64,000 nucleotides of DNA, taken from Deltaproteobacteria bacterium (GTDB lineage Bacteria > Myxococcota_A > UBA796 > SXON01). Below, piece after piece: positions 401 through 39,300 of the stretch. A program made the translations under genes and the position numbers. The notes beneath the pieces are model-generated. The model searched no databases. It was not told where the DNA came from and saw only the letters and a program-made list of their open reading frames with translations. The stretch covers positions 2,637 through 66,636 of the forward strand of contig CANKOI010000008.1 of the NCBI GenBank assembly GCA_947484175.1. Direction: 5' to 3'. Numbering within the stretch: position 1 is the first letter of the stretch; every line of letters starts with the position of its first letter.

Positions 401-3400
401 GTGCTCCTCCTCCTCGCCCCCCTCGCCGCCGCCGATCCGGCGTTCTCCGTGGAGCGCGGCGTGTTCACGGAAGCCTTCGTCGTGGAGATCACCCCCTCCG
501 ACGCAGGCGGCACCGTGCTCGTCAGCACCGGCACCGCCGAGCCCACCGCCGCGTACGCAGGCCCGATCGCCGTCTCCGCCACCGCAATCCTCCGGGCCGT
601 AGAGGTCGACGCCGACGGCGTGCGCGGCACCGTCGTCACCCACAGCTACCTCTTCCCGCAGGACATCGTCGCGCAGCCCGCGATGGACCCCGGCATCACC
701 CAGAGCGCGGCCTACAAGGACGACGTGCTCTCCACGCTCTCCACGCTCCCGTCGGTGTCGTTGGTGTCCGGAGGGGCCCTCACCACGGCCAAATCGTCGG
801 TCTCCGCCGAGTGGATCGACCCCGACGGCGACGACCTCCAGGTGAACTGCGCCGTGGCGCGCACCGGTACCACGAGTCTCGGCTACCCCAAGAACAGCCT
901 CCGCCTCTACTTCAACGGCGACTACGGCCCCGACGAGGTGGACTTCGACTTCTGGTCCCTCGAGGACGAAGGCCCCGCCCCGTCCCGCGAGCAGGACGCC
1001 CTCAGCCTCCGCTCCGGTCACGACTCCGTGTTCTACTTGGGCGCCCAGGGCCAATACACCCGCAACGACTGGATGGACGCGTCCCAGCTCGCCATGGGGC
1101 ACACCGCCCCCCACGGCCGGTTCGCCCACGTCTACGAAAACGGCAGCTACATCGGGCTGTACCACGTTCGTGAGCGCTTCAACGCCGCCTTCCTCTCCCA
1201 CTACCTCGGCGGCAGCTCCAGCGACTACGAAGCCGTGAACGAGGGAACCATCCGCGCAGGCTCCGGGGCGGCCTGGGCGCAGGTGATGGCCTCGATGTAC
1301 GACGTAGAGGCCATCCAAGCGTGGCTGCACCTCGACCACTTCCTCGACTACATGCTGCTGAATTACTACGCCGGCAACACCTGGGATTGGACGGCGTACC
1401 ACAACTGGGCGGGAGCCGGCCCCTCCACCCCCAACGCAGGCGGCTACCGCTTCTACAGCTCCGACAGCGACATCTGCATCTACTACGACTACCCGGTGAA
1501 CGCGCTCTACTTGCCCGGTCCAGCCGGCATTTTTCCAGCGCTGCTCTCCCAAGGGCACCCTGACTTTCTGGTGGCGCTGCAAGACGCCATCCACCGGAAC
1601 TTGGAGGGCAACGGACCGCTCACCGCCGACCGCGCGGGCGAACGTTACGCCGCCATCGCCGACAGTATCGAACTGGCCGTGACCGCCGAGTCCGCGCGCT
1701 GGGGCTACGGCTGGTGGGACCGCGACGGCGAGTGGGTGACCGAACGCGAACGCCTCCTGCAAACGTTTTTCCCGTACCGCACCGACGAGCTGCTCGACCA
1801 GGTCGAAGCGTTGGGCTGGTACCCCGTTGCAGCGCCCGTCCTGTCGATCGCCTCGGGCGAGCTGCGGGCCGGCGACGACGTGAGCGTGGAGGTGCCCGAC
1901 GGGGAGGTGGCGGAGCTGTGGGTGACGGTGGACGGGACCGATCCGCGCCGGCCGGGCGGCGAAACGGCGCCGGGGGCGCTGCTCGCCGACAACGGCGTAT
2001 TCGTGGTGGCCGTCCAGCACGGCACGGTGCTGCGGGCACGCCTGCGGGTGCGCGACCAGTGGGGACCCATCGAAACCGGCGAGTACGTCGTGCGCGAGGC
2101 GAACCCGCTCGTGCTCAACGAGTGGAACGCGGTGGGTGAGGGGGGGGTGCTCGACGACCGAGGGTTCGCGGGCAGCGGCAGCGACGACGCCCTCGGCGTG
2201 CTCGAAGGCAACGGTGGCGCCTGGCTGGAGTTCGTGGTCACGGAGGAGCTCGACCTGCGCGGCTGGCGGCTCACCATGGCTGACCTACGCGGCCCGGCCG
2301 GCGAGATCACCTTCACCGACCACGCTGCGCTGGCCGCCCTCCCTGCCGGTGCGCTCCTCACCGTGTCGGCCAGCCTTCAAGAGGACACCTCGATCGACGC
2401 AACCGCCGCCGACTGGCGCCTCCACCTCACCGCCTCCCCCGAGGGAGCCTACGCGCAGAGCGAGGGCTTCCGCGTGAGCGCGCAGGAGTGGCAGCTCAGC
2501 GTGTGGGACGCCGAAGGCCACCGCCGCTTCGGCCCCGTGGGCGAAGGGCTCGCGCCCCGCCGCGGCATCAGCGAGCACGAGGTCGGCGCGCTCCTCGCCA
2601 ACCCCGGTGCATCCACCCCCGCCGACAGCACCGACTACGGCGCCACGACCCGCTCGACGTACGCCGCGCCCAACGCCTGGGAGAACGGCCTCCAGGACCT
2701 CTCCGCGCTCCGGGGCGTGGCGGAGGCCGCCCCCGACCCGTCCGAGCCCAACGACCCACCCCCCTCGTGGACCGGCGTGTGCGGCGGCTGCGGCACGGCT
2801 GGTGGGGACGGGTCGCTGGCGTGGGGGCTCGCGCTCCTCCTCCTCGCCGGGTGCCGGAACGGCACCTCCGTGGCGCCCCCCCCCGAGGACGAGGAGACCG
2901 GCGACGAGTGCGCCACCGCCCCCGAACAGTGCAACGGCCTCGACGACGATTGCAACGGCCTCGTGGACGACGCCCCCATCGACCCCCTCCCCTTCTACGC
3001 CGACGCCGACGGCGACGGCTGGGGAGCCGAGGGCGCGACCGTGTACGCCTGTGCGGTAGGCGCGGGCGCGTCGGCCACCGCCGGCGACTGCGACGACGCC
3101 GACCCCGACGTACACCCCGGAGCCGAGGAGGCCTGCAACGACATCGACCGCGACTGTGACGGCGTGGAGAACTCCGGGTTCGGTTCCGCCCCCGCCTGCG
3201 CCGCAACGACCTGCCTAGAAATCCTCACGGCGGTGCCCACCGCCGACGACGGCGCCTACTGGCTGAACCTCCCCTCCGGCACCGCCACCGAGGTGTGGTG
3301 CGACATGGCCGACGGCGGGTGGACCCTCGGCTTCAACCGCAACACCGCCAGCACCGGCAGCCAGGGCTCCTTCGGCAGTGGCGAGGAAGGCCTCGCCGCC

Positions 3401-3859
3401 CTCGCCACCTCCCCGGAGCTCGCCAGCGCCAGCGTGACCCCCGCGCGCGGCTGGCACGACCTCAACGCCTTCTCGTGGGACGAGCTCCGCCTCACCGCGG
3501 CGGCCTCCGGAGCGCGCAGCTACACATCGCGGCCGATCGGCCGCGACGAGCTGCGCGTGAACTTCGGCGAGCCAGGCTACCTCCTGTACGGGGGCGCGAG
3601 CGGCTACTTCTGGTGCGGGGGGCCGGCGTCGTACACCGACACCGGCATCGGCGCGGTGAACAACCCTGCCGGCGCCACGCCGGATTGCAAGGGGCACGGC
3701 TCGTTGGGCTCCGGGTGGGATTTTTCGGACGTGGACGGCGCCAACGCCGGGCTCACCCTCTGCGGAGGCGATGGCAGCTACTTCCTCGCCGGGGGCTGGG
3801 GCGGTCCGTGGATGTACTATGGGACCGCCGGCGGCGCGGAGGCCATTTGGGTGCGATGA
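401..3859 (+). CDS. Large secreted mosaic protein: Fn3-like N-terminus, CotH kinase-like core, lamin-tail-like domain, internal GCG/LALLLLAGC segment, Cys/Asp metal-binding-type repeats, C-terminal fibrinogen-related domain
   Basis: 1152-codon ORF with a GTG start. CotH-like stretches are present (LRLYFNGDYG, LLNYYAGNTWDW). An LTD-like stretch follows (PLVLNEWNAVG...WLEFVV). MopE-like repeats follow that (CNGLDDDCNG, CDDADPDVHPGAEEACNDIDRDCDG). The fibrinogen-type motif is TCLEIL...VWCDMADGGWTL. The stop overlaps the next start (ATGA at 3856-3859). Confidence 0.8.
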   Translation: MLLLLAPLAAADPAFSVERGVFTEAFVVEITPSDAGGTVLVSTGTAEPTAAYAGPIAVSATAILRAVEVDADGVRGTVVTHSYLFPQDIVAQPAMDPGITQSAAYKDDVLSTLSTLPSVSLVSGGALTTAKSSVSAEWIDPDGDDLQVNCAVARTGTTSLGYPKNSLRLYFNGDYGPDEVDFDFWSLEDEGPAPSREQDALSLRSGHDSVFYLGAQGQYTRNDWMDASQLAMGHTAPHGRFAHVYENGSYIGLYHVRERFNAAFLSHYLGGSSSDYEAVNEGTIRAGSGAAWAQVMASMYDVEAIQAWLHLDHFLDYMLLNYYAGNTWDWTAYHNWAGAGPSTPNAGGYRFYSSDSDICIYYDYPVNALYLPGPAGIFPALLSQGHPDFLVALQDAIHRNLEGNGPLTADRAGERYAAIADSIELAVTAESARWGYGWWDRDGEWVTERERLLQTFFPYRTDELLDQVEALGWYPVAAPVLSIASGELRAGDDVSVEVPDGEVAELWVTVDGTDPRRPGGETAPGALLADNGVFVVAVQHGTVLRARLRVRDQWGPIETGEYVVREANPLVLNEWNAVGEGGVLDDRGFAGSGSDDALGVLEGNGGAWLEFVVTEELDLRGWRLTMADLRGPAGEITFTDHAALAALPAGALLTVSASLQEDTSIDATAADWRLHLTASPEGAYAQSEGFRVSAQEWQLSVWDAEGHRRFGPVGEGLAPRRGISEHEVGALLANPGASTPADSTDYGATTRSTYAAPNAWENGLQDLSALRGVAEAAPDPSEPNDPPPSWTGVCGGCGTAGGDGSLAWGLALLLLAGCRNGTSVAPPPEDEETGDECATAPEQCNGLDDDCNGLVDDAPIDPLPFYADADGDGWGAEGATVYACAVGAGASATAGDCDDADPDVHPGAEEACNDIDRDCDGVENSGFGSAPACAATTCLEILTAVPTADDGAYWLNLPSGTATEVWCDMADGGWTLGFNRNTASTGSQGSFGSGEEGLAALATSPELASASVTPARGWHDLNAFSWDELRLTAAASGARSYTSRPIGRDELRVNFGEPGYLLYGGASGYFWCGGPASYTDTGIGAVNNPAGATPDCKGHGSLGSGWDFSDVDGANAGLTLCGGDGSYFLAGGWGGPWMYYGTAGGAEAIWVR

Positions 3860-8234: not shown

Positions 8235-8642
8235 TCACCCCCTCATGGAGCCCGTCACGTTGCCGACACGAACGGTCGAGCCGGGTACGACCTCCGCCGC
8301 CTCCCCGGGAGGGAGTCGCCACTCCCCCACCCACGTGCCGTTGGTGCTGCCCAGATCGCGCAGCAGCCACGCGCCATCCGAGACCACGAACTCGGCATGC
8401 CGCCGACTCACGCTGTCGTCGTCGAGCTCCACATCTGCGCCGACGCCGCCTTCCGTGCGCCCCACCAACAGCCGACTTCCCATGAGCGGCCAGCTACTTG
8501 CGCCAACCACCAGAACGATCGCTCCGGCGCGCTGATCCGGCACAGCGGCGGCAATGGCGGTGGCGCGAGAACGCGCTGGCGGAGGCGGAGCAGCGGGCAC
8601 TGCCTCGGGAACCGGGGCCGCGAGTCCTTTCCGCTCACGCAT
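8235..8642 (-). CDS. FHA domain protein (phosphothreonine reader)
   Basis: The internal ATG (MRERKG...) overlaps the vWA stop by 8 nt. FHA core: LLVGRTEGGVGADVELDDDSVSRRHAEFVVSDGAWLLRDLGSTNGTWV. The exact start is uncertain because the ORF extends to 8762. Confidence 0.85.
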   Translation of the reverse strand: MRERKGLAAPVPEAVPAAPPPPARSRATAIAAAVPDQRAGAIVLVVGASSWPLMGSRLLVGRTEGGVGADVELDDDSVSRRHAEFVVSDGAWLLRDLGSTNGTWVGEWRLPPGEAAEVVPGSTVRVGNVTGSMRG

Positions 8643-9693
8643 CACGGCTGCCCGACAGCCGGCGGGTGTGGCGCAGCGGGTCCTCCGGATCGTCGGCCAT
8701 GGAGCGGAGCTGGGCGGTACGGGCGAGCTCGACGCGTACCCGGAACTGGTCCACCTCGGCATTGAGCGCCCGGAGCGCGGCGGAGCGCGGCGCCGCGACG
8801 GTCAGTGTGAGGTCGACAGCCACCTCGGTGCCCTCGGCCTGCCGAACGCGGAGGGTCCCCACGCTGCGGACGCCCCGGCCGGCAGCAAGCGGCGCTCGAT
8901 AGCGGACACGGAAGCCGATCCCGCCACCCTCACCAACCGCGACCGCCACCCGCCCAGCCGCCAGAGTGAGTGGCTCCACTCGCGGCGCCACCCGCCACGC
9001 CTCGTGGACCTCCAGCACATCGGAGTCGAGGGCGAGAGTCAACTCGACCTCCTCGGCCGCGTCGCCCCGCAGCACGCCCAAGATTCGCTCCGGCAACCCC
9101 GAGGGTTCGACACCCACGGCGGATGTCCCCCCGCCGGCATCTGCGAGCGACCGAAGAAAGCTCCCGTCGTAGCTCGCGGCGCTCCCAATGCCGATCACAC
9201 TGGTGCGAACCCCGCTGGCGCCGAGGGAGCGCGCTTGAGAGAGGATCGGATCGACAGCGGCAAGGCGCCCGTCCACATCCGTCGGGTCGCCGTCGGTGAG
9301 CACCACGACGTAGCGCGGACCCGACCGGTCGGTCATCCACTTCGCGCACGCGCTGAGGGCGAGGTCGAGCCGAGTCTTGCCGCTCGCGCCGACCCCGGCC
9401 AGCACCGCGCCGACGTCAGCGCCACCTGGGGTGTCGAGCACCTCCGTGACCGCGCTGCCGAAGGAATACACGACGAGCCGATCGGCGGGAAGACAGGCAG
9501 AAACGAGCCCCGCAACGGCCTCTCGGGCGTACGCGAGGCGACGGCCCAACATCGACGTACTCGTGTCCATCAGGATGGCGAACGAGGCGGGTTGGTCGGT
9601 GCGCGGGAAGCCGCGGAGCGTGGCCACCAGCCAGTGCTCGCTGTCGCCAGAGGTGGCGTTGCGGTCCCACCCGAGCTCGATGCGGAGGCTCAC
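8635..9693 (-). CDS. von Willebrand factor A (vWA) domain protein with C-terminal beta-rich extension
   Basis: The GTG at 9693 forms a GTGA overlap with the upstream AAA+ stop. MIDAS-type DxSxS is present (ILMDTSTSM), followed by GKTRLDLAL and VVVLTDGDPTD blocks. Confidence 0.88.
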   Translation of the reverse strand: MSLRIELGWDRNATSGDSEHWLVATLRGFPRTDQPASFAILMDTSTSMLGRRLAYAREAVAGLVSACLPADRLVVYSFGSAVTEVLDTPGGADVGAVLAGVGASGKTRLDLALSACAKWMTDRSGPRYVVVLTDGDPTDVDGRLAAVDPILSQARSLGASGVRTSVIGIGSAASYDGSFLRSLADAGGGTSAVGVEPSGLPERILGVLRGDAAEEVELTLALDSDVLEVHEAWRVAPRVEPLTLAAGRVAVAVGEGGGIGFRVRYRAPLAAGRGVRSVGTLRVRQAEGTEVAVDLTLTVAAPRSAALRALNAEVDQFRVRVELARTAQLRSMADDPEDPLRHTRRLSGSRDA

Positions 9694-37244: not shown

Positions 37245-37820
37245 ATGGCACGTTTGGTCGAGATGGCAGCGGGTGCGGGGCGCGTTGCGCTCACGCCCCA
37301 AATCCTGCTGATGGTCACGAAGGTGTACATCCCCTTCTTGTTCCCGCTCACCTTCCTGATCGCGATGCTGGCGCTCTGGTTGGACGGGGCGCTGGGCTTT
37401 TCCGGCGGGCTCCTTCCTGCGCCCACGAACCTCTGGGTGGCCGCGTTCTTGATGGCGGCGGGGCTCGCGTTCGTCGGGGTCACCTACGCCGAGCTGGTGT
37501 TCGAAGGCAAGGGAAGCCCCTCGCCCACGGCGGGCCGCACCCTCCACCTCGTACGATCGGGCATCTACGCCTACAGTCGCAACCCTTCGGTGATCGGCAA
37601 GCTGCTCGGCTTCCTCTCCGTAGGCGTGGCGCTGAACTCCTTTACCTTCGTGGCGCTCCTCGCTCCGCTGTTGCTCGCTGGTTCGCTGGTCGAGAAGGTG
37701 GTACGGCAGGAGCCACAGCTCATCGAGATTTTCGGCGACGAGTACCTCGCGTACCAGCGCGAGGTCCCGTTGTTCTTCCCTTGGCGACTCTTCGGCCTTC
37801 GCCCCCCTTTCCGCTCGTAG
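37245..37820 (+). CDS. ICMT/PEMT-like membrane methyltransferase family protein
   Basis: 191 aa with 4-5 TM helices. The C-terminal block is LVRSGIYAYSRNPSVIGKLLGF...EPQLIEIFGDEYLAYQREVP, typical of the isoprenylcysteine carboxyl methyltransferase-like family. The start may lie at a downstream Met because only 22 bp separate it from the divergent gene. Confidence 0.75.
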   Translation: MARLVEMAAGAGRVALTPQILLMVTKVYIPFLFPLTFLIAMLALWLDGALGFSGGLLPAPTNLWVAAFLMAAGLAFVGVTYAELVFEGKGSPSPTAGRTLHLVRSGIYAYSRNPSVIGKLLGFLSVGVALNSFTFVALLAPLLLAGSLVEKVVRQEPQLIEIFGDEYLAYQREVPLFFPWRLFGLRPPFRS

Positions 37821-37848
37821 TTCCGTCCCTTTCGCTCCCGGAGCCCCT

Positions 37849-39300
37849 ATGGACATCACTCTCCTCAACCCTCCCGAGCAGCTCCGCGTGTGGGCCGGCA
37901 TTCCCAAGGCCATGGCCTACGGGGTGTACTGCTTTCCGCCGCTCGGCCTGATGTACGTTCAGGCGGCGATCGAAAAACGCTCCCACTACAAGGCGGAGAT
38001 CTTTGATCCGGTCGTCGACGATCTCGACTACCCCGAGTTCGAAGCGCAGCTCAAGCGCTACCCGCTCGACATCGTGGGCATCAGCACCTACACGCACTCG
38101 CTGCCCGACGTGCAGATGACCATCAACACGGTGCGCAAGCTCAACCCGAACGCGAAGATCGTGCTCGGCGGCCCACACACCTCGATGTTTCCCGACTACG
38201 CGATGCAGCTCAAGGATGCCGACGCCATCCTCACGGGCGATGGCGAAGACGCGTTTCTCGAGATGGTACAGCGCTACGACGCCGGCAAGTCCTGGGAGGG
38301 CATCGAGGGCCTCTGGTTCAAGGACAACGACGGCACGGTCATCAAGAACAAGGATCGGAAGAGCACCAAGTCGCTCGACTCCTACCCTTGGCCCGACCGC
38401 AGCCGCACCCGCTTCCGCGAGTACTACCTGCCCGGCTGCAAACAGCCGCTCAACACCACGGCCATCACCAGCCGCGGCTGTCCGCACTCCTGCCCCTTCT
38501 GCCTCACCTACAAGAAGCAGTACCGGATGCGCGACATCGACAACATCCTCGACGAGATGGAGCACTGCGTTTCCCTCGGCATCACCGAGACCCACTTCAT
38601 CGACGACCTGTTCACGCCGAACAGCCAGTGGGCGATGAAGTTCTGCGACGGCATCGAGCGGCGCGGGCTGAAGTTCAACTGGGGCTACAAGACCACGATC
38701 GCCGGTACCACCCGCGAGCAGCTCCGTCGCTGCGCCGAAACGGGCTGCACGAAGATTCACTTCGGCGTGGAGAGCACGAACAACGAAGGCCTCGACGTGT
38801 GGGGCAAACACTGCGACACCGACGACGTGCACCGCGTATTCAAGTGGTGCCGCGAAGAGGGCGTGCGCAGCGTGGCCTACATCATGCTCGGCGGGCCCCA
38901 CGAGCGCACGATGGATGCCGCGATCAAGAACGTCGACGAGATGATCAAGCTCGACGCCGACTACGCGGTGTTCGCGGTCTTCTCGCCCTACCCGGGCACC
39001 GAGAGCTTCGAAGACGGCGCCAAGAAGGGTCTTTTCGCGGCCGACTGCTGGGACCGCCTGATGAAAGACCCGCTCTGCGGCGTGGAAGTACCCGCCTGCT
39101 GGGAGGAGCACCTCACCAAGGAGCAAATCCTTGAGCTCCTGAAGATCGCGCACCGCAAGTTCTACTTGCGGCCTCGTTTCGTGGCGCGCACGGCGGCGAA
39201 GATCGCCAGCGTTTCGGAGGCCAAACGCCTCTTTGCCGGCGGGCTCTCGATCTTCAAGCTGGAATTGCTCAACGGCAAGAGCCGCACCGCACCGGTGTAG
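37849..39300 (+). CDS. B12-binding-domain radical SAM protein (class B rSAM)
   Basis: 483 aa, with a GGAG Shine-Dalgarno 5 nt upstream. It has an N-terminal cobalamin-binding-like domain (DIVGISTYTHS...IVLGGPH). The radical-SAM cluster motif is SRGCPHSCPFC. Confidence 0.9.
   Translation: MDITLLNPPEQLRVWAGIPKAMAYGVYCFPPLGLMYVQAAIEKRSHYKAEIFDPVVDDLDYPEFEAQLKRYPLDIVGISTYTHSLPDVQMTINTVRKLNPNAKIVLGGPHTSMFPDYAMQLKDADAILTGDGEDAFLEMVQRYDAGKSWEGIEGLWFKDNDGTVIKNKDRKSTKSLDSYPWPDRSRTRFREYYLPGCKQPLNTTAITSRGCPHSCPFCLTYKKQYRMRDIDNILDEMEHCVSLGITETHFIDDLFTPNSQWAMKFCDGIERRGLKFNWGYKTTIAGTTREQLRRCAETGCTKIHFGVESTNNEGLDVWGKHCDTDDVHRVFKWCREEGVRSVAYIMLGGPHERTMDAAIKNVDEMIKLDADYAVFAVFSPYPGTESFEDGAKKGLFAADCWDRLMKDPLCGVEVPACWEEHLTKEQILELLKIAHRKFYLRPRFVARTAAKIASVSEAKRLFAGGLSIFKLELLNGKSRTAPV

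Follow-up and report, generated by a model that had tools for sequence, protein, structure and literature searches.

The window analysed here, a stretch of 64,000 nucleotides (GC content 69%) on contig CANKOI010000008.1 from a Deltaproteobacteria bacterium, contains at positions 401 to 3859 of the forward strand an open reading frame (ORF) of 1152 residues with a GTG start codon (residue i starts at nucleotide 401+3(i-1)). In this ORF a CotH-like module and a MopE/fibrinogen-like module are joined in one frame through a short junction, hereafter the seam, which combines on one hydrophobic helix the features of a MYXO-CTERM-type C-terminal sorting tag with those of a lipoprotein signal. A first-pass annotation, made from the letters of this DNA, had placed such a segment in the middle of the ORF and read it either as the joint of two ancestral genes or as an internal processing site. 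The seam peptide, VCGGCGTAGGDGSLAWGLALLLLAGCRNG, was found in the ORF and in the DNA exactly where it had been placed, at residues 793 to 820 and nucleotides 2777 to 2860, with V793 encoded by 2777 to 2779 and N820 by 2858 to 2860 (gtg tgc ggc ggc tgc ... gcc ggg tgc cgg aac).

The Cys motif of the seam is preceded by an acidic, Pro-rich, unstructured linker (residues 775 to 793, nucleotides 2723 to 2779), which has an AlphaFold per-residue confidence (pLDDT) below 50 and is hypervariable in homologues. The motif itself, C794-G-G-C797 (2780 to 2791; C794 at 2780 to 2782 and C797 at 2789 to 2791), is a MYXO-CTERM-type signature that lines up with GCGC in the canonical C-terminal tags of split orthologues and is the predicted lipidation and myxosortase site. 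It is followed by 20 residues that are common to both signals (2792 to 2851), comprising a spacer, G798 to S805, and a helix, L806 to G817 (2816 to 2851), in which LAWGLALLLL stands directly before AGC. The lipobox L815-A816-G817-C818 (2843 to 2854) fits the pattern [LVI][ASTVI][GAS]C, and C818 aligns with the +1 Cys of the second gene in split loci. The basic residue right after the lipobox Cys, R819 (2855 to 2857), stands in place of a lost RRRR cluster, and the Pro/acidic linker of the mature lipoprotein part, NGTSVAPPPEDEETGDE (2858 to 2908), again has low AlphaFold confidence. No promoter-like or terminator-like site and no meaningful repeat was found in the DNA between 2400 and 3100.

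With 334 residues downstream of C818, the tag is not at the extreme C terminus and the lipoprotein signal is not N-terminal. There is also no basic n-region, as no Lys or Arg occurs between R771 and C818 and D803 lies within this interval. The segment scored 11.7 bits against the MYXO-CTERM hidden Markov model (HMM) TIGR03382 (cut-off 15.85) and 9 bits against TIGR03901 (cut-off 20), because the Arg cluster is missing. The earlier description of the segment as MYXO-CTERM-type therefore holds for the Cys motif, the spacer, the helix and the homologous position, and fails for the Arg cluster, the C-terminal location and the HMM cut-offs; the label "MYXO-CTERM-like" is justified by homology of position and not by HMM score.

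In the AlphaFold model, the protein is made up of two confident modules, one CotH kinase-like and one intelectin-like, on a low-confidence linker. The N-terminal module (residues 12 to 774, nucleotides 434 to 2722) consists of a CHB_HEX_C-like domain, a CotH kinase-like core and beta-sandwich domains. The pLDDT was mostly above 90 over residues 8 to 774, and residues 775 to 840, seam included, formed the only long low-confidence stretch (below 50). Using Foldseek, the N-terminal module matched the B. cereus CotH kinase 5JDA (E 7e-10, probability 1.0, TM-score 0.67 on the target), and the Pfam family CotH (PF08757) gave 20.7 bits over 45 residues, under its cut-off of 23.8. Of the CotH-LTD architecture first assigned to this part, a CotH kinase-like fold was matched at the structural level, with the sequence match under its cut-off, while at E≤1 the window protein gave no hit to LTD (PF00932), a domain that outgroup homologues do have. 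The downstream part had been described as MopE/fibrinogen, and this was borne out: its Cys-rich MopE-type repeats (approximately residues 837 to 929, nucleotides 2909 to 3187), in which the Cys are invariant, matched PF11617 with 42.7 bits over two stretches (best at 896 to 922), and the fibrinogen/intelectin-like C-terminal domain (approximately residues 930 to 1152, nucleotides 3188 to 3859 with the stop codon) matched the NCBIfam model GGGWT_bact with 36.1 bits at 937 to 976. Foldseek matches of this domain were intelectin-1, ficolin and the Xenopus embryonic epidermal lectin (probability 1.0).

A search with the full protein gave 333 homologues at E≤1e-5, with about 60 spanning 99 to 100% of the query, and the junction was typed in the best 102 of the 333. 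Three forms were distinguished among the 98 proteins that were not fragments. Thirty-five were split (type A), with approximately 820 to 860 residues and a canonical tag at the C terminus, i.e., GCGC, spacer, helix, RRRR and a short tail. Forty-two were full-length, two-helix fused proteins (type B), in which the tag, RRRR included, leads directly into a further short hydrophobic segment and then a lipobox Cys, as in ...GCGCESSNARAGWLGLLLLLPLYRRRRVLPLVALAAC.... The remaining 21, including the window protein, were full-length, one-helix fused proteins (type C), with a lone helix between two Cys and no Arg cluster. TIGR03901 exceeded its cut-off at the homologous position, C-terminally in a split protein (P0077, 20.4 bits) and internally in two-helix proteins (P0021, 26.4 bits; P0043, 21.3 bits).

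Both halves were also mapped onto the DNA of 77 related loci from genome assemblies, mostly metagenome-assembled genomes (MAGs) from freshwater lakes labelled Myxococcota or Deltaproteobacteria. In 34 loci from different MAGs, both halves lay in a single frame without a stop, and several clusters of fused homologues recurred over many contigs and samples (up to 25 member sequences or 9 contigs). The split versions that the first-pass annotation had suggested looking for among orthologues were found as well: in 15 distinct loci the halves are adjacent genes, in the same order and orientation as in the fusions, with the second gene (gene 2) always in the -1 frame. Its start codon, which had likewise been suggested as a place to look, overlaps the TGA of gene 1 by four nucleotides, as ATGA or GTGA, in 14 of the 15. 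Gene 2 encodes a 395-residue MopE protein that begins with Met, six to nine hydrophobic residues and a lipobox Cys, and it aligns with the C-terminal part of the window protein through the last residues (...GGAQAIWVR). In some two-helix proteins a Met still directly follows RRRR, and a one-base insertion near the overlap suffices to fuse the split genes. The split loci are unlikely to be frameshift errors, since a start codon is located exactly at the overlap in all of them and the tails after RRRR differ. The seam is thus almost certainly that of an in-frame gene fusion between a tagged CotH protein and a MopE/fibrinogen-like lipoprotein, which upholds the earlier proposal of two ancestral genes.

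The split loci had some further features. A GGAGG-like Shine-Dalgarno sequence of gene 2 often lay inside the CGG/AGG codons of RRRR or of the short tail (L025, L029, L043, L051, L075 and L079), so that one stretch would serve as both sorting signal and ribosome-binding site. The constant -1 frame of gene 2 raised the possibility of programmed -1 frameshifting; the overlaps inspected contain no slippery heptamer, and the idea was dropped since termination-reinitiation at ATGA/GTGA accounts for the pattern. One locus (L044, 3240 to 6409) has a split-type CotH gene with a canonical MYXO-CTERM tag and no MopE/fibrinogen-like partner downstream, showing that the pairing is not obligatory. In a two-helix fused gene (L083, 3001 to 6591; P0098) there is one in-frame stop in the first MopE motif (ERCNG*DDDC), beyond which the rest of the C-terminal module is still read in that frame; possible causes are a nonsense mutation, an error in sequencing and a fission under way. 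Finally, an irregular locus (L056, approximately 8506 to 8878), in which the N-terminal ORF extends 228 nucleotides beyond the start of the match to the C-terminal module in another frame, is probably a frameshifted copy.

Within the fused proteins, the two Cys of the seam stood out. In an alignment of 42 fused homologues, 47 to 73% identical to the window protein, C797 and C818 were the only invariant columns between Q765 and E842, and the 76-residue stretch around the seam was otherwise hypervariable in sequence and length; for this reason the seam is not a chance feature. The lipobox named in the first-pass annotation (LLAGC) accordingly ends in an invariant Cys. The hydrophobic run between the two Cys was kept in all 63 fused homologues examined, and a strict lipobox pattern was present in 15/21 one-helix and 26/42 two-helix proteins. 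The median distance between the tag Cys and the helix end was 20 residues in split, two-helix and one-helix proteins alike, which means that the lipobox Cys of the one-helix form occupies the position of the first Arg. An Arg or Lys followed within three residues of the lipobox Cys in 18 of the 21 one-helix proteins (six of seven lineages) versus 3 of the 42 two-helix proteins; the loss of RRRR is accompanied by the reappearance of positive charge on the same side of the helix. No ATG, GTG, TTG or Shine-Dalgarno sequence was conserved at the seam among 22 fused loci. With no conserved internal start and no promoter-like or terminator-like site, export of the C-terminal module depends on the fused chain.

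The three junction types were interleaved on a neighbour-joining (NJ) tree of the N-terminal 750 columns. When Fitch parsimony was applied to 50 bootstrap NJ trees, 9 to 12 changes between the fused and split states were needed, compared to approximately 27 for randomly shuffled labels, and the one-helix form had 5 to 8 origins; these counts of independent events are rough since the NJ trees are approximate. The fused state has clearly arisen, or reverted, many times. The window protein belongs to a one-helix clade (P0001 to P0010, 58 to 73% identity), whose nearest neighbours outside the clade are split, and it is a derived one-helix form of the commoner two-helix junction, with the lipobox Cys at the former position of RRRR.

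Known MYXO-CTERM proteins are exported through Sec, after which the tag helix keeps them in the inner membrane with the Arg cluster on the cytoplasmic side, and the tag is cleaved by the myxosortase MrtX (PMC11980579). For lipidation of the tag Cys, Lgt is considered the foremost candidate enzyme, against which speak the inverted topology and the absence of a lipobox (PMC11980579). On this background the history of the seam can be envisaged as follows. The ancestral pair would have been adjacent, translationally coupled genes, the first encoding a secreted CotH-kinase-like protein with a MYXO-CTERM end (Cys motif, spacer, helix and RRRR) and the second, with an ATG or GTG start overlapping the TGA of the first, a MopE/intelectin-like lipoprotein with a very short signal peptide. 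Small frame-restoring indels would then have fused them, the common product being Cys motif, helix 1, RRRR, helix 2 and lipobox Cys. Such a two-helix form could act as a stop-transfer/start-transfer hairpin in the inner membrane, where helix 1 would halt transfer and helix 2 restart translocation, and the RRRR in the cytoplasm would be at once the basic cluster of the tag and the n-region of the lipoprotein signal that follows. Myxosortase, acting after lipidation of the tag Cys, and Lgt/LspA, acting at the lipobox Cys, would then set free two proteins, each with its own lipid anchor. In the window form, RRRR and one helix would have been deleted, leaving a single spacer and helix between C797 and C818, with R819 replacing RRRR. 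Fusion may have been favoured since the signal of gene 2 is very short: it would supply a basic n-region and bring the short helix to the membrane.

For the window protein, the explanation that accounts best for the observations as a whole, and which we favour with moderate confidence, is a fusion seam whose one-helix form still works as a module for double lipidation and cleavage. Internal processing is likely because both Cys are invariant and because there are precedents for processed internal sorting tags; by conservation and analogy, the protein is probably still cut at the seam into two lipid-anchored products, and dual processing taken by itself is somewhat better supported than its absence. 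Processing does not compete with fusion as an explanation; we infer that it is the most likely consequence of it.

Several points weigh against this explanation. Besides the sub-cut-off scores of both HMMs, the reduction of the Arg cluster to R819 and the missing basic n-region, an Arg at +2 is unusual for an exported lipoprotein. Cleavage and lipidation, as well as the topology of the seam, are argued from conservation and analogy, and the trees behind the event counts are approximate. A crude scan found no gene for myxosortase, Lgt, LspA or a type II secretion system (T2SS) within the 64-kb window; for myxosortase it comprised Pfam on 10 window ORFs and a crude CPBP motif scan of all ORFs, which is uninformative for a 64-kb piece. 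The main difficulty is topological, as one helix cannot span the membrane with both flanking modules outside, and the window form has no worked-out topology for two enzymes. Oriented as the tag needs, the helix would put the C-terminal module in the cytoplasm; oriented as the lipoprotein signal needs, it would put the CotH module there. With about 12 hydrophobic residues, the helix does not exceed that of canonical tags, and without RRRR it may fail to stop transfer and come to lie in the outer leaflet, so that the two Cys both face the periplasm. Alternatively, the first cut may be followed by an inversion of the helix, or just one site may still be in use.

Seams of this kind were not restricted to CotH proteins. 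A profile of 43 positions, built from 31 two-helix seams, was searched against 1.84 billion representative proteins at E≤1e-3 and gave 52 matches, none of them a CotH homologue. Half of the matches (26) were internal, and 24 of these extended through the second hydrophobic segment. The profile is short, and the members of the CotH family itself scored below its threshold; seams of this type must therefore be far more numerous in reality. Unrelated domain pairs or tandem paralogues were joined by the two-helix junction in at least 23 further protein clusters. The arrangement of tag, RRRR, short helix and lipobox Cys thus connected Kelch to RCC1 (P0130), a pectinacetylesterase (PAE) to a sulfatase (P0133), a metallophosphoesterase to CAP (P0152) and trypsin to a copper monooxygenase C domain (P0164), and was also found in several MopE/FG-GAP proteins. 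Other ORFs contained two to four tandem paralogous modules, each with its own type I-like signal peptide and MYXO-CTERM tag (P0121, with four modules in 1236 residues, P0122 to P0126, P0136, P0138, P0139, P0144, P0157 and P0169), and look like concatenated secretory precursors. When checked at the DNA level, P0121 (L084, 1501 to 5211) and P0133 (L085, 1501 to 4746) each proved to be one ORF, uninterrupted by in-frame stops when the standard bacterial code is applied. P0121 occurred in two independent assemblies, and it adjoins genes for a type III secretion ATPase and a YscO-like protein.

The rival that survives best, though we hold it to be distinctly less probable than processing, is that the seam is a fusion scar with one live signal or none. 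The protein would then stay uncut, the helix being a membrane-embedded or interfacial anchor, or only one Cys being lipidated; the two modules would thereby stay joined on the envelope, and the second Cys would be kept for another reason, e.g., a disulfide or acylation without cleavage. Such a scar would suit a segment that fails both MYXO-CTERM models and lacks RRRR and a basic n-region, and it avoids the inconsistent topology that a single helix imposes on two enzymes with opposite orientation needs; keeping the modules together could even be the selective cause of the repeated fusions. Yet neither Cys varies in any fused lineage, most one-helix proteins (15/21) retain the lipobox pattern, and a useless exposed hydrophobic run, which would be expected to decay, was lost in no fused homologue. 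The split state is also common and interleaved with the fused one, suggesting that the products work as separate chains.

A bolder version of the processing explanation is speculative and, in our judgement, rather doubtful. It would make the one-helix seam a naturally occurring site of double lipidation in mirror image, and polyprotein-like secretory precursors a regular means by which Myxococcota co-express surface proteins. Here a short helix with a Cys at each end would be acylated at both by Lgt, the enzyme that Guo et al. (2025) put forward for acylation of MYXO-CTERM tags in spite of the inverted topology, myxosortase would cut after the first Cys and LspA before the second, and a peptide of about 20 residues would be excised to leave two lipoproteins, which requires a helix that lies in the outer leaflet or inverts after the first cut. 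On the wider scale, two to four complete export units per ORF would be joined by tag-plus-signal hairpins.

Considerably less probable is a plain stop-transfer anchor (N-out, C-in), with the CotH module either released or anchored on the outside through the MYXO-CTERM pathway and the MopE/fibrinogen-like module in the cytoplasm. The one-helix seam does have the geometry of a MYXO-CTERM tag, with its median of 20 residues from Cys to helix end, and a basic residue follows the helix in six of seven one-helix lineages, as the positive-inside rule requires. However, the C-terminal module is a lipoprotein, and hence exported, in split loci, its fold matches extracellular, disulfide-bonded, Ca-dependent lectins, and the sequence after R819 is acidic, like that of translocated linkers. 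At least 12 Cys of this module are invariant across all fused lineages, the one-helix ones included, and their persistence indicates that the module still works outside the cytoplasm.

An internal start, at the GTG of nucleotide 2777 or a similar codon, is improbable to a still greater degree. The C-terminal module would be made separately and the seam would be the signal peptide of this second product; V793 is indeed encoded by GTG, 25 codons before C818, and in split loci the translation of gene 2 begins at this place. Conserved start codons were nevertheless absent from the fused seams, with none at all between the Cys motif and the lipobox in four loci (L008, L009, L016 and L040), no Shine-Dalgarno-like sequence or promoter-like site precedes 2777, and without a stop the full-length protein would be made regardless. 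As for an assembly or sequencing artefact joining two real genes, the split and fused forms do differ by one frame, so that a single indel error could mimic a fusion, but this is hardly credible here, given that a frameshift cannot yield a one-helix form from which RRRR, tail and start codon are all absent, that relatives at 58 to 73% identity from independent samples have the same form, and that the GC content at third codon positions is 0.91 along the entire frame from 401 to 3859.

Paired helices with the roles proposed for the two-helix seams are known from viral polyproteins. In flaviviruses, for example, the E protein has two C-terminal helices before NS1, the first of which anchors the upstream protein while the second restarts translocation, and in such stop-transfer/internal-signal pairs the products are separated by cleavage on the far side of the membrane. 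The two-helix relatives of the window protein resemble these pairs, but are encoded by bacterial chromosomal genes and would have cleavages coupled to Cys lipidation; the one-helix window form has no counterpart in the viral scheme. Compared to a canonical MYXO-CTERM tag (TIGR03901/TIGR03382; MrtX-processed and T2SS-exported), the window seam shares the disordered stretch, the Cys motif, the spacer of about 8 residues, the helix of about 12 residues and the basic residue, and differs in being internal, in having its Arg cluster cut to R819, in a helix that ends in a lipobox Cys and in its sub-cut-off HMM scores. With a lipoprotein signal (the substrate of Lgt, LspA and Lnt) it shares an LAGC after a Leu-rich h-region and before a Pro/acidic linker, and it is orthologous to the signal of gene 2; it differs in not being N-terminal, in the missing basic n-region, a part that the RRRR of the tag provides in two-helix relatives, and in the basic +2 residue.

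Two fusion proteins are close precedents. MXAN_5598 of Myxococcus xanthus contains an internal MYXO-CTERM and has been proposed to be a fusion of a TraA-like adhesin and a TraB-like OmpA protein (Guo, Haft & Wall 2025, PMC11980579). Like the seam studied here, its tag lies in mid-protein and is ascribed to a fusion of genes whose unfused counterparts, traA and traB of M. xanthus, overlap by four bases (PMC3325183); the ATGA/GTGA split loci have the same arrangement as traA/traB. Its authors proposed that the N-terminal part is processed and surface-anchored (PMC11980579). It is a case raised in passing in a discussion, with no comparative or experimental support, and we compared it by its description, in which the downstream part is a beta-barrel/OmpA and not a lipoprotein, and which includes no lipobox, shared RRRR, one-helix form or recurrence. 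HVO_0405 of Haloferax volcanii is, according to the summary in PMC7157517, a gene-fusion protein that is cleaved in vivo, dependent on ArtA, at a central sorting signal (Abdul Halim et al. 2017). As summarized there, two formerly independent genes were fused and a C-terminal sorting signal, a tripartite signal of the PGF-CTERM type, was left in mid-protein, and its cleavage by the archaeosortase ArtA depends on the lipidation pathway. In contrast to the seam, the protein is archaeal and a Tat substrate, enzyme and signal are different, the fusion is strain-specific and, in that summary, no lipoprotein signal follows the tag.

Fusions that leave internal sorting tags are thus already known, experimentally for HVO_0405 as far as that summary goes and as a proposal for MXAN_5598, and so is the 4-base overlap of a MYXO-CTERM gene with its partner. 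A literature search on internal lipoboxes and bacterial lipoprotein polyproteins returned viral and clinical papers only. In the literature searched, we found no description of a tag that passes directly into a lipoprotein signal and shares its Arg cluster with it, of repeated origin of a fusion within one family, of a seam collapsed to a single Cys-helix-Cys unit, or of the breadth of tag-plus-signal seams over unrelated proteins. On one scaffold, the family offers a graded natural series in which tag and lipoprotein signal are separate, back to back, or merged on one helix, and hence a ready-made set of substrates for what myxosortase, Lgt and LspA each need; the series also bears on which enzyme lipidates MYXO-CTERM tags. 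A tag directly followed by a signal peptide is a reusable seam, with about ten origins in this family alone, and polyprotein-like secretory precursors may occur regularly in these bacteria. Annotations should count such ORFs as two or more mature products, and their internal tags are currently missed by models of C-terminal tags and by signal-peptide predictors.

The window protein begins with an ultrashort signal-like peptide, M-LLLLAPLAAA (401 to 433, forward strand), followed by DPAFSVERG. The same start was present in most of more than 90 aligned homologues of all three junction types; upstream of 401 there is no earlier in-frame ATG, GTG or TTG, and a stop lies 60 nucleotides upstream. 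This N terminus (M-LLLLAPLAAA|DP) is hydrophobic and has an AxA-like site, yet it is only 11 residues long and lacks a basic n-region. Other very short signals without a basic n-region were observed: an ORF of 670 residues in the window (23916 to 21904, reverse strand) starts with MPLLLVLAAC, and gene 2 in split loci L025, L027, L029, L043, L075 and L079 starts with Met, 6 to 9 hydrophobic residues and Cys, e.g., MILLALVAC. All of these, in the CotH ORF, the 670-residue ORF and gene 2, are shorter than signal peptides normally thought functional. An 87-residue lipoprotein with a MopE-type Cys/Asp motif (MRAAMRSPLLLVALAGC..., 8231 to 7968, reverse strand) shows that the genome encodes further MopE lipoproteins.

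Elsewhere in the window, at 37245 to 39300 on the forward strand, a 191-residue membrane methyltransferase of the PEMT/ICMT family is encoded directly upstream of a B12-binding radical SAM protein. Eukaryotic ICMT methylates the lipidated C-terminal Cys left by Rce1, a homologue of myxosortase; the presence of the gene here may be a coincidence. Around the CotH ORF no conserved neighbourhood was seen, as flanking genes vary between loci, and the context gave no functional clue. In the closest relative (L082, 2498 to 5113), the immediate upstream neighbour is a gene for an 871-residue MopE protein, which shares about 30 nucleotides with the start of the CotH gene. In L006, L009 and L013 the tblastn match reaches about 1.5 kb further upstream, where the window has only 400 nucleotides before the ORF. 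Several high-GC contigs (L007, L014, L019, L032, L039 and others) are titled Klebsiella pneumoniae, Bifidobacterium breve, Enterobacterales or Rickettsiales and are evidently mislabelled MAG submissions. The related MAG loci also encode other canonical MYXO-CTERM proteins.

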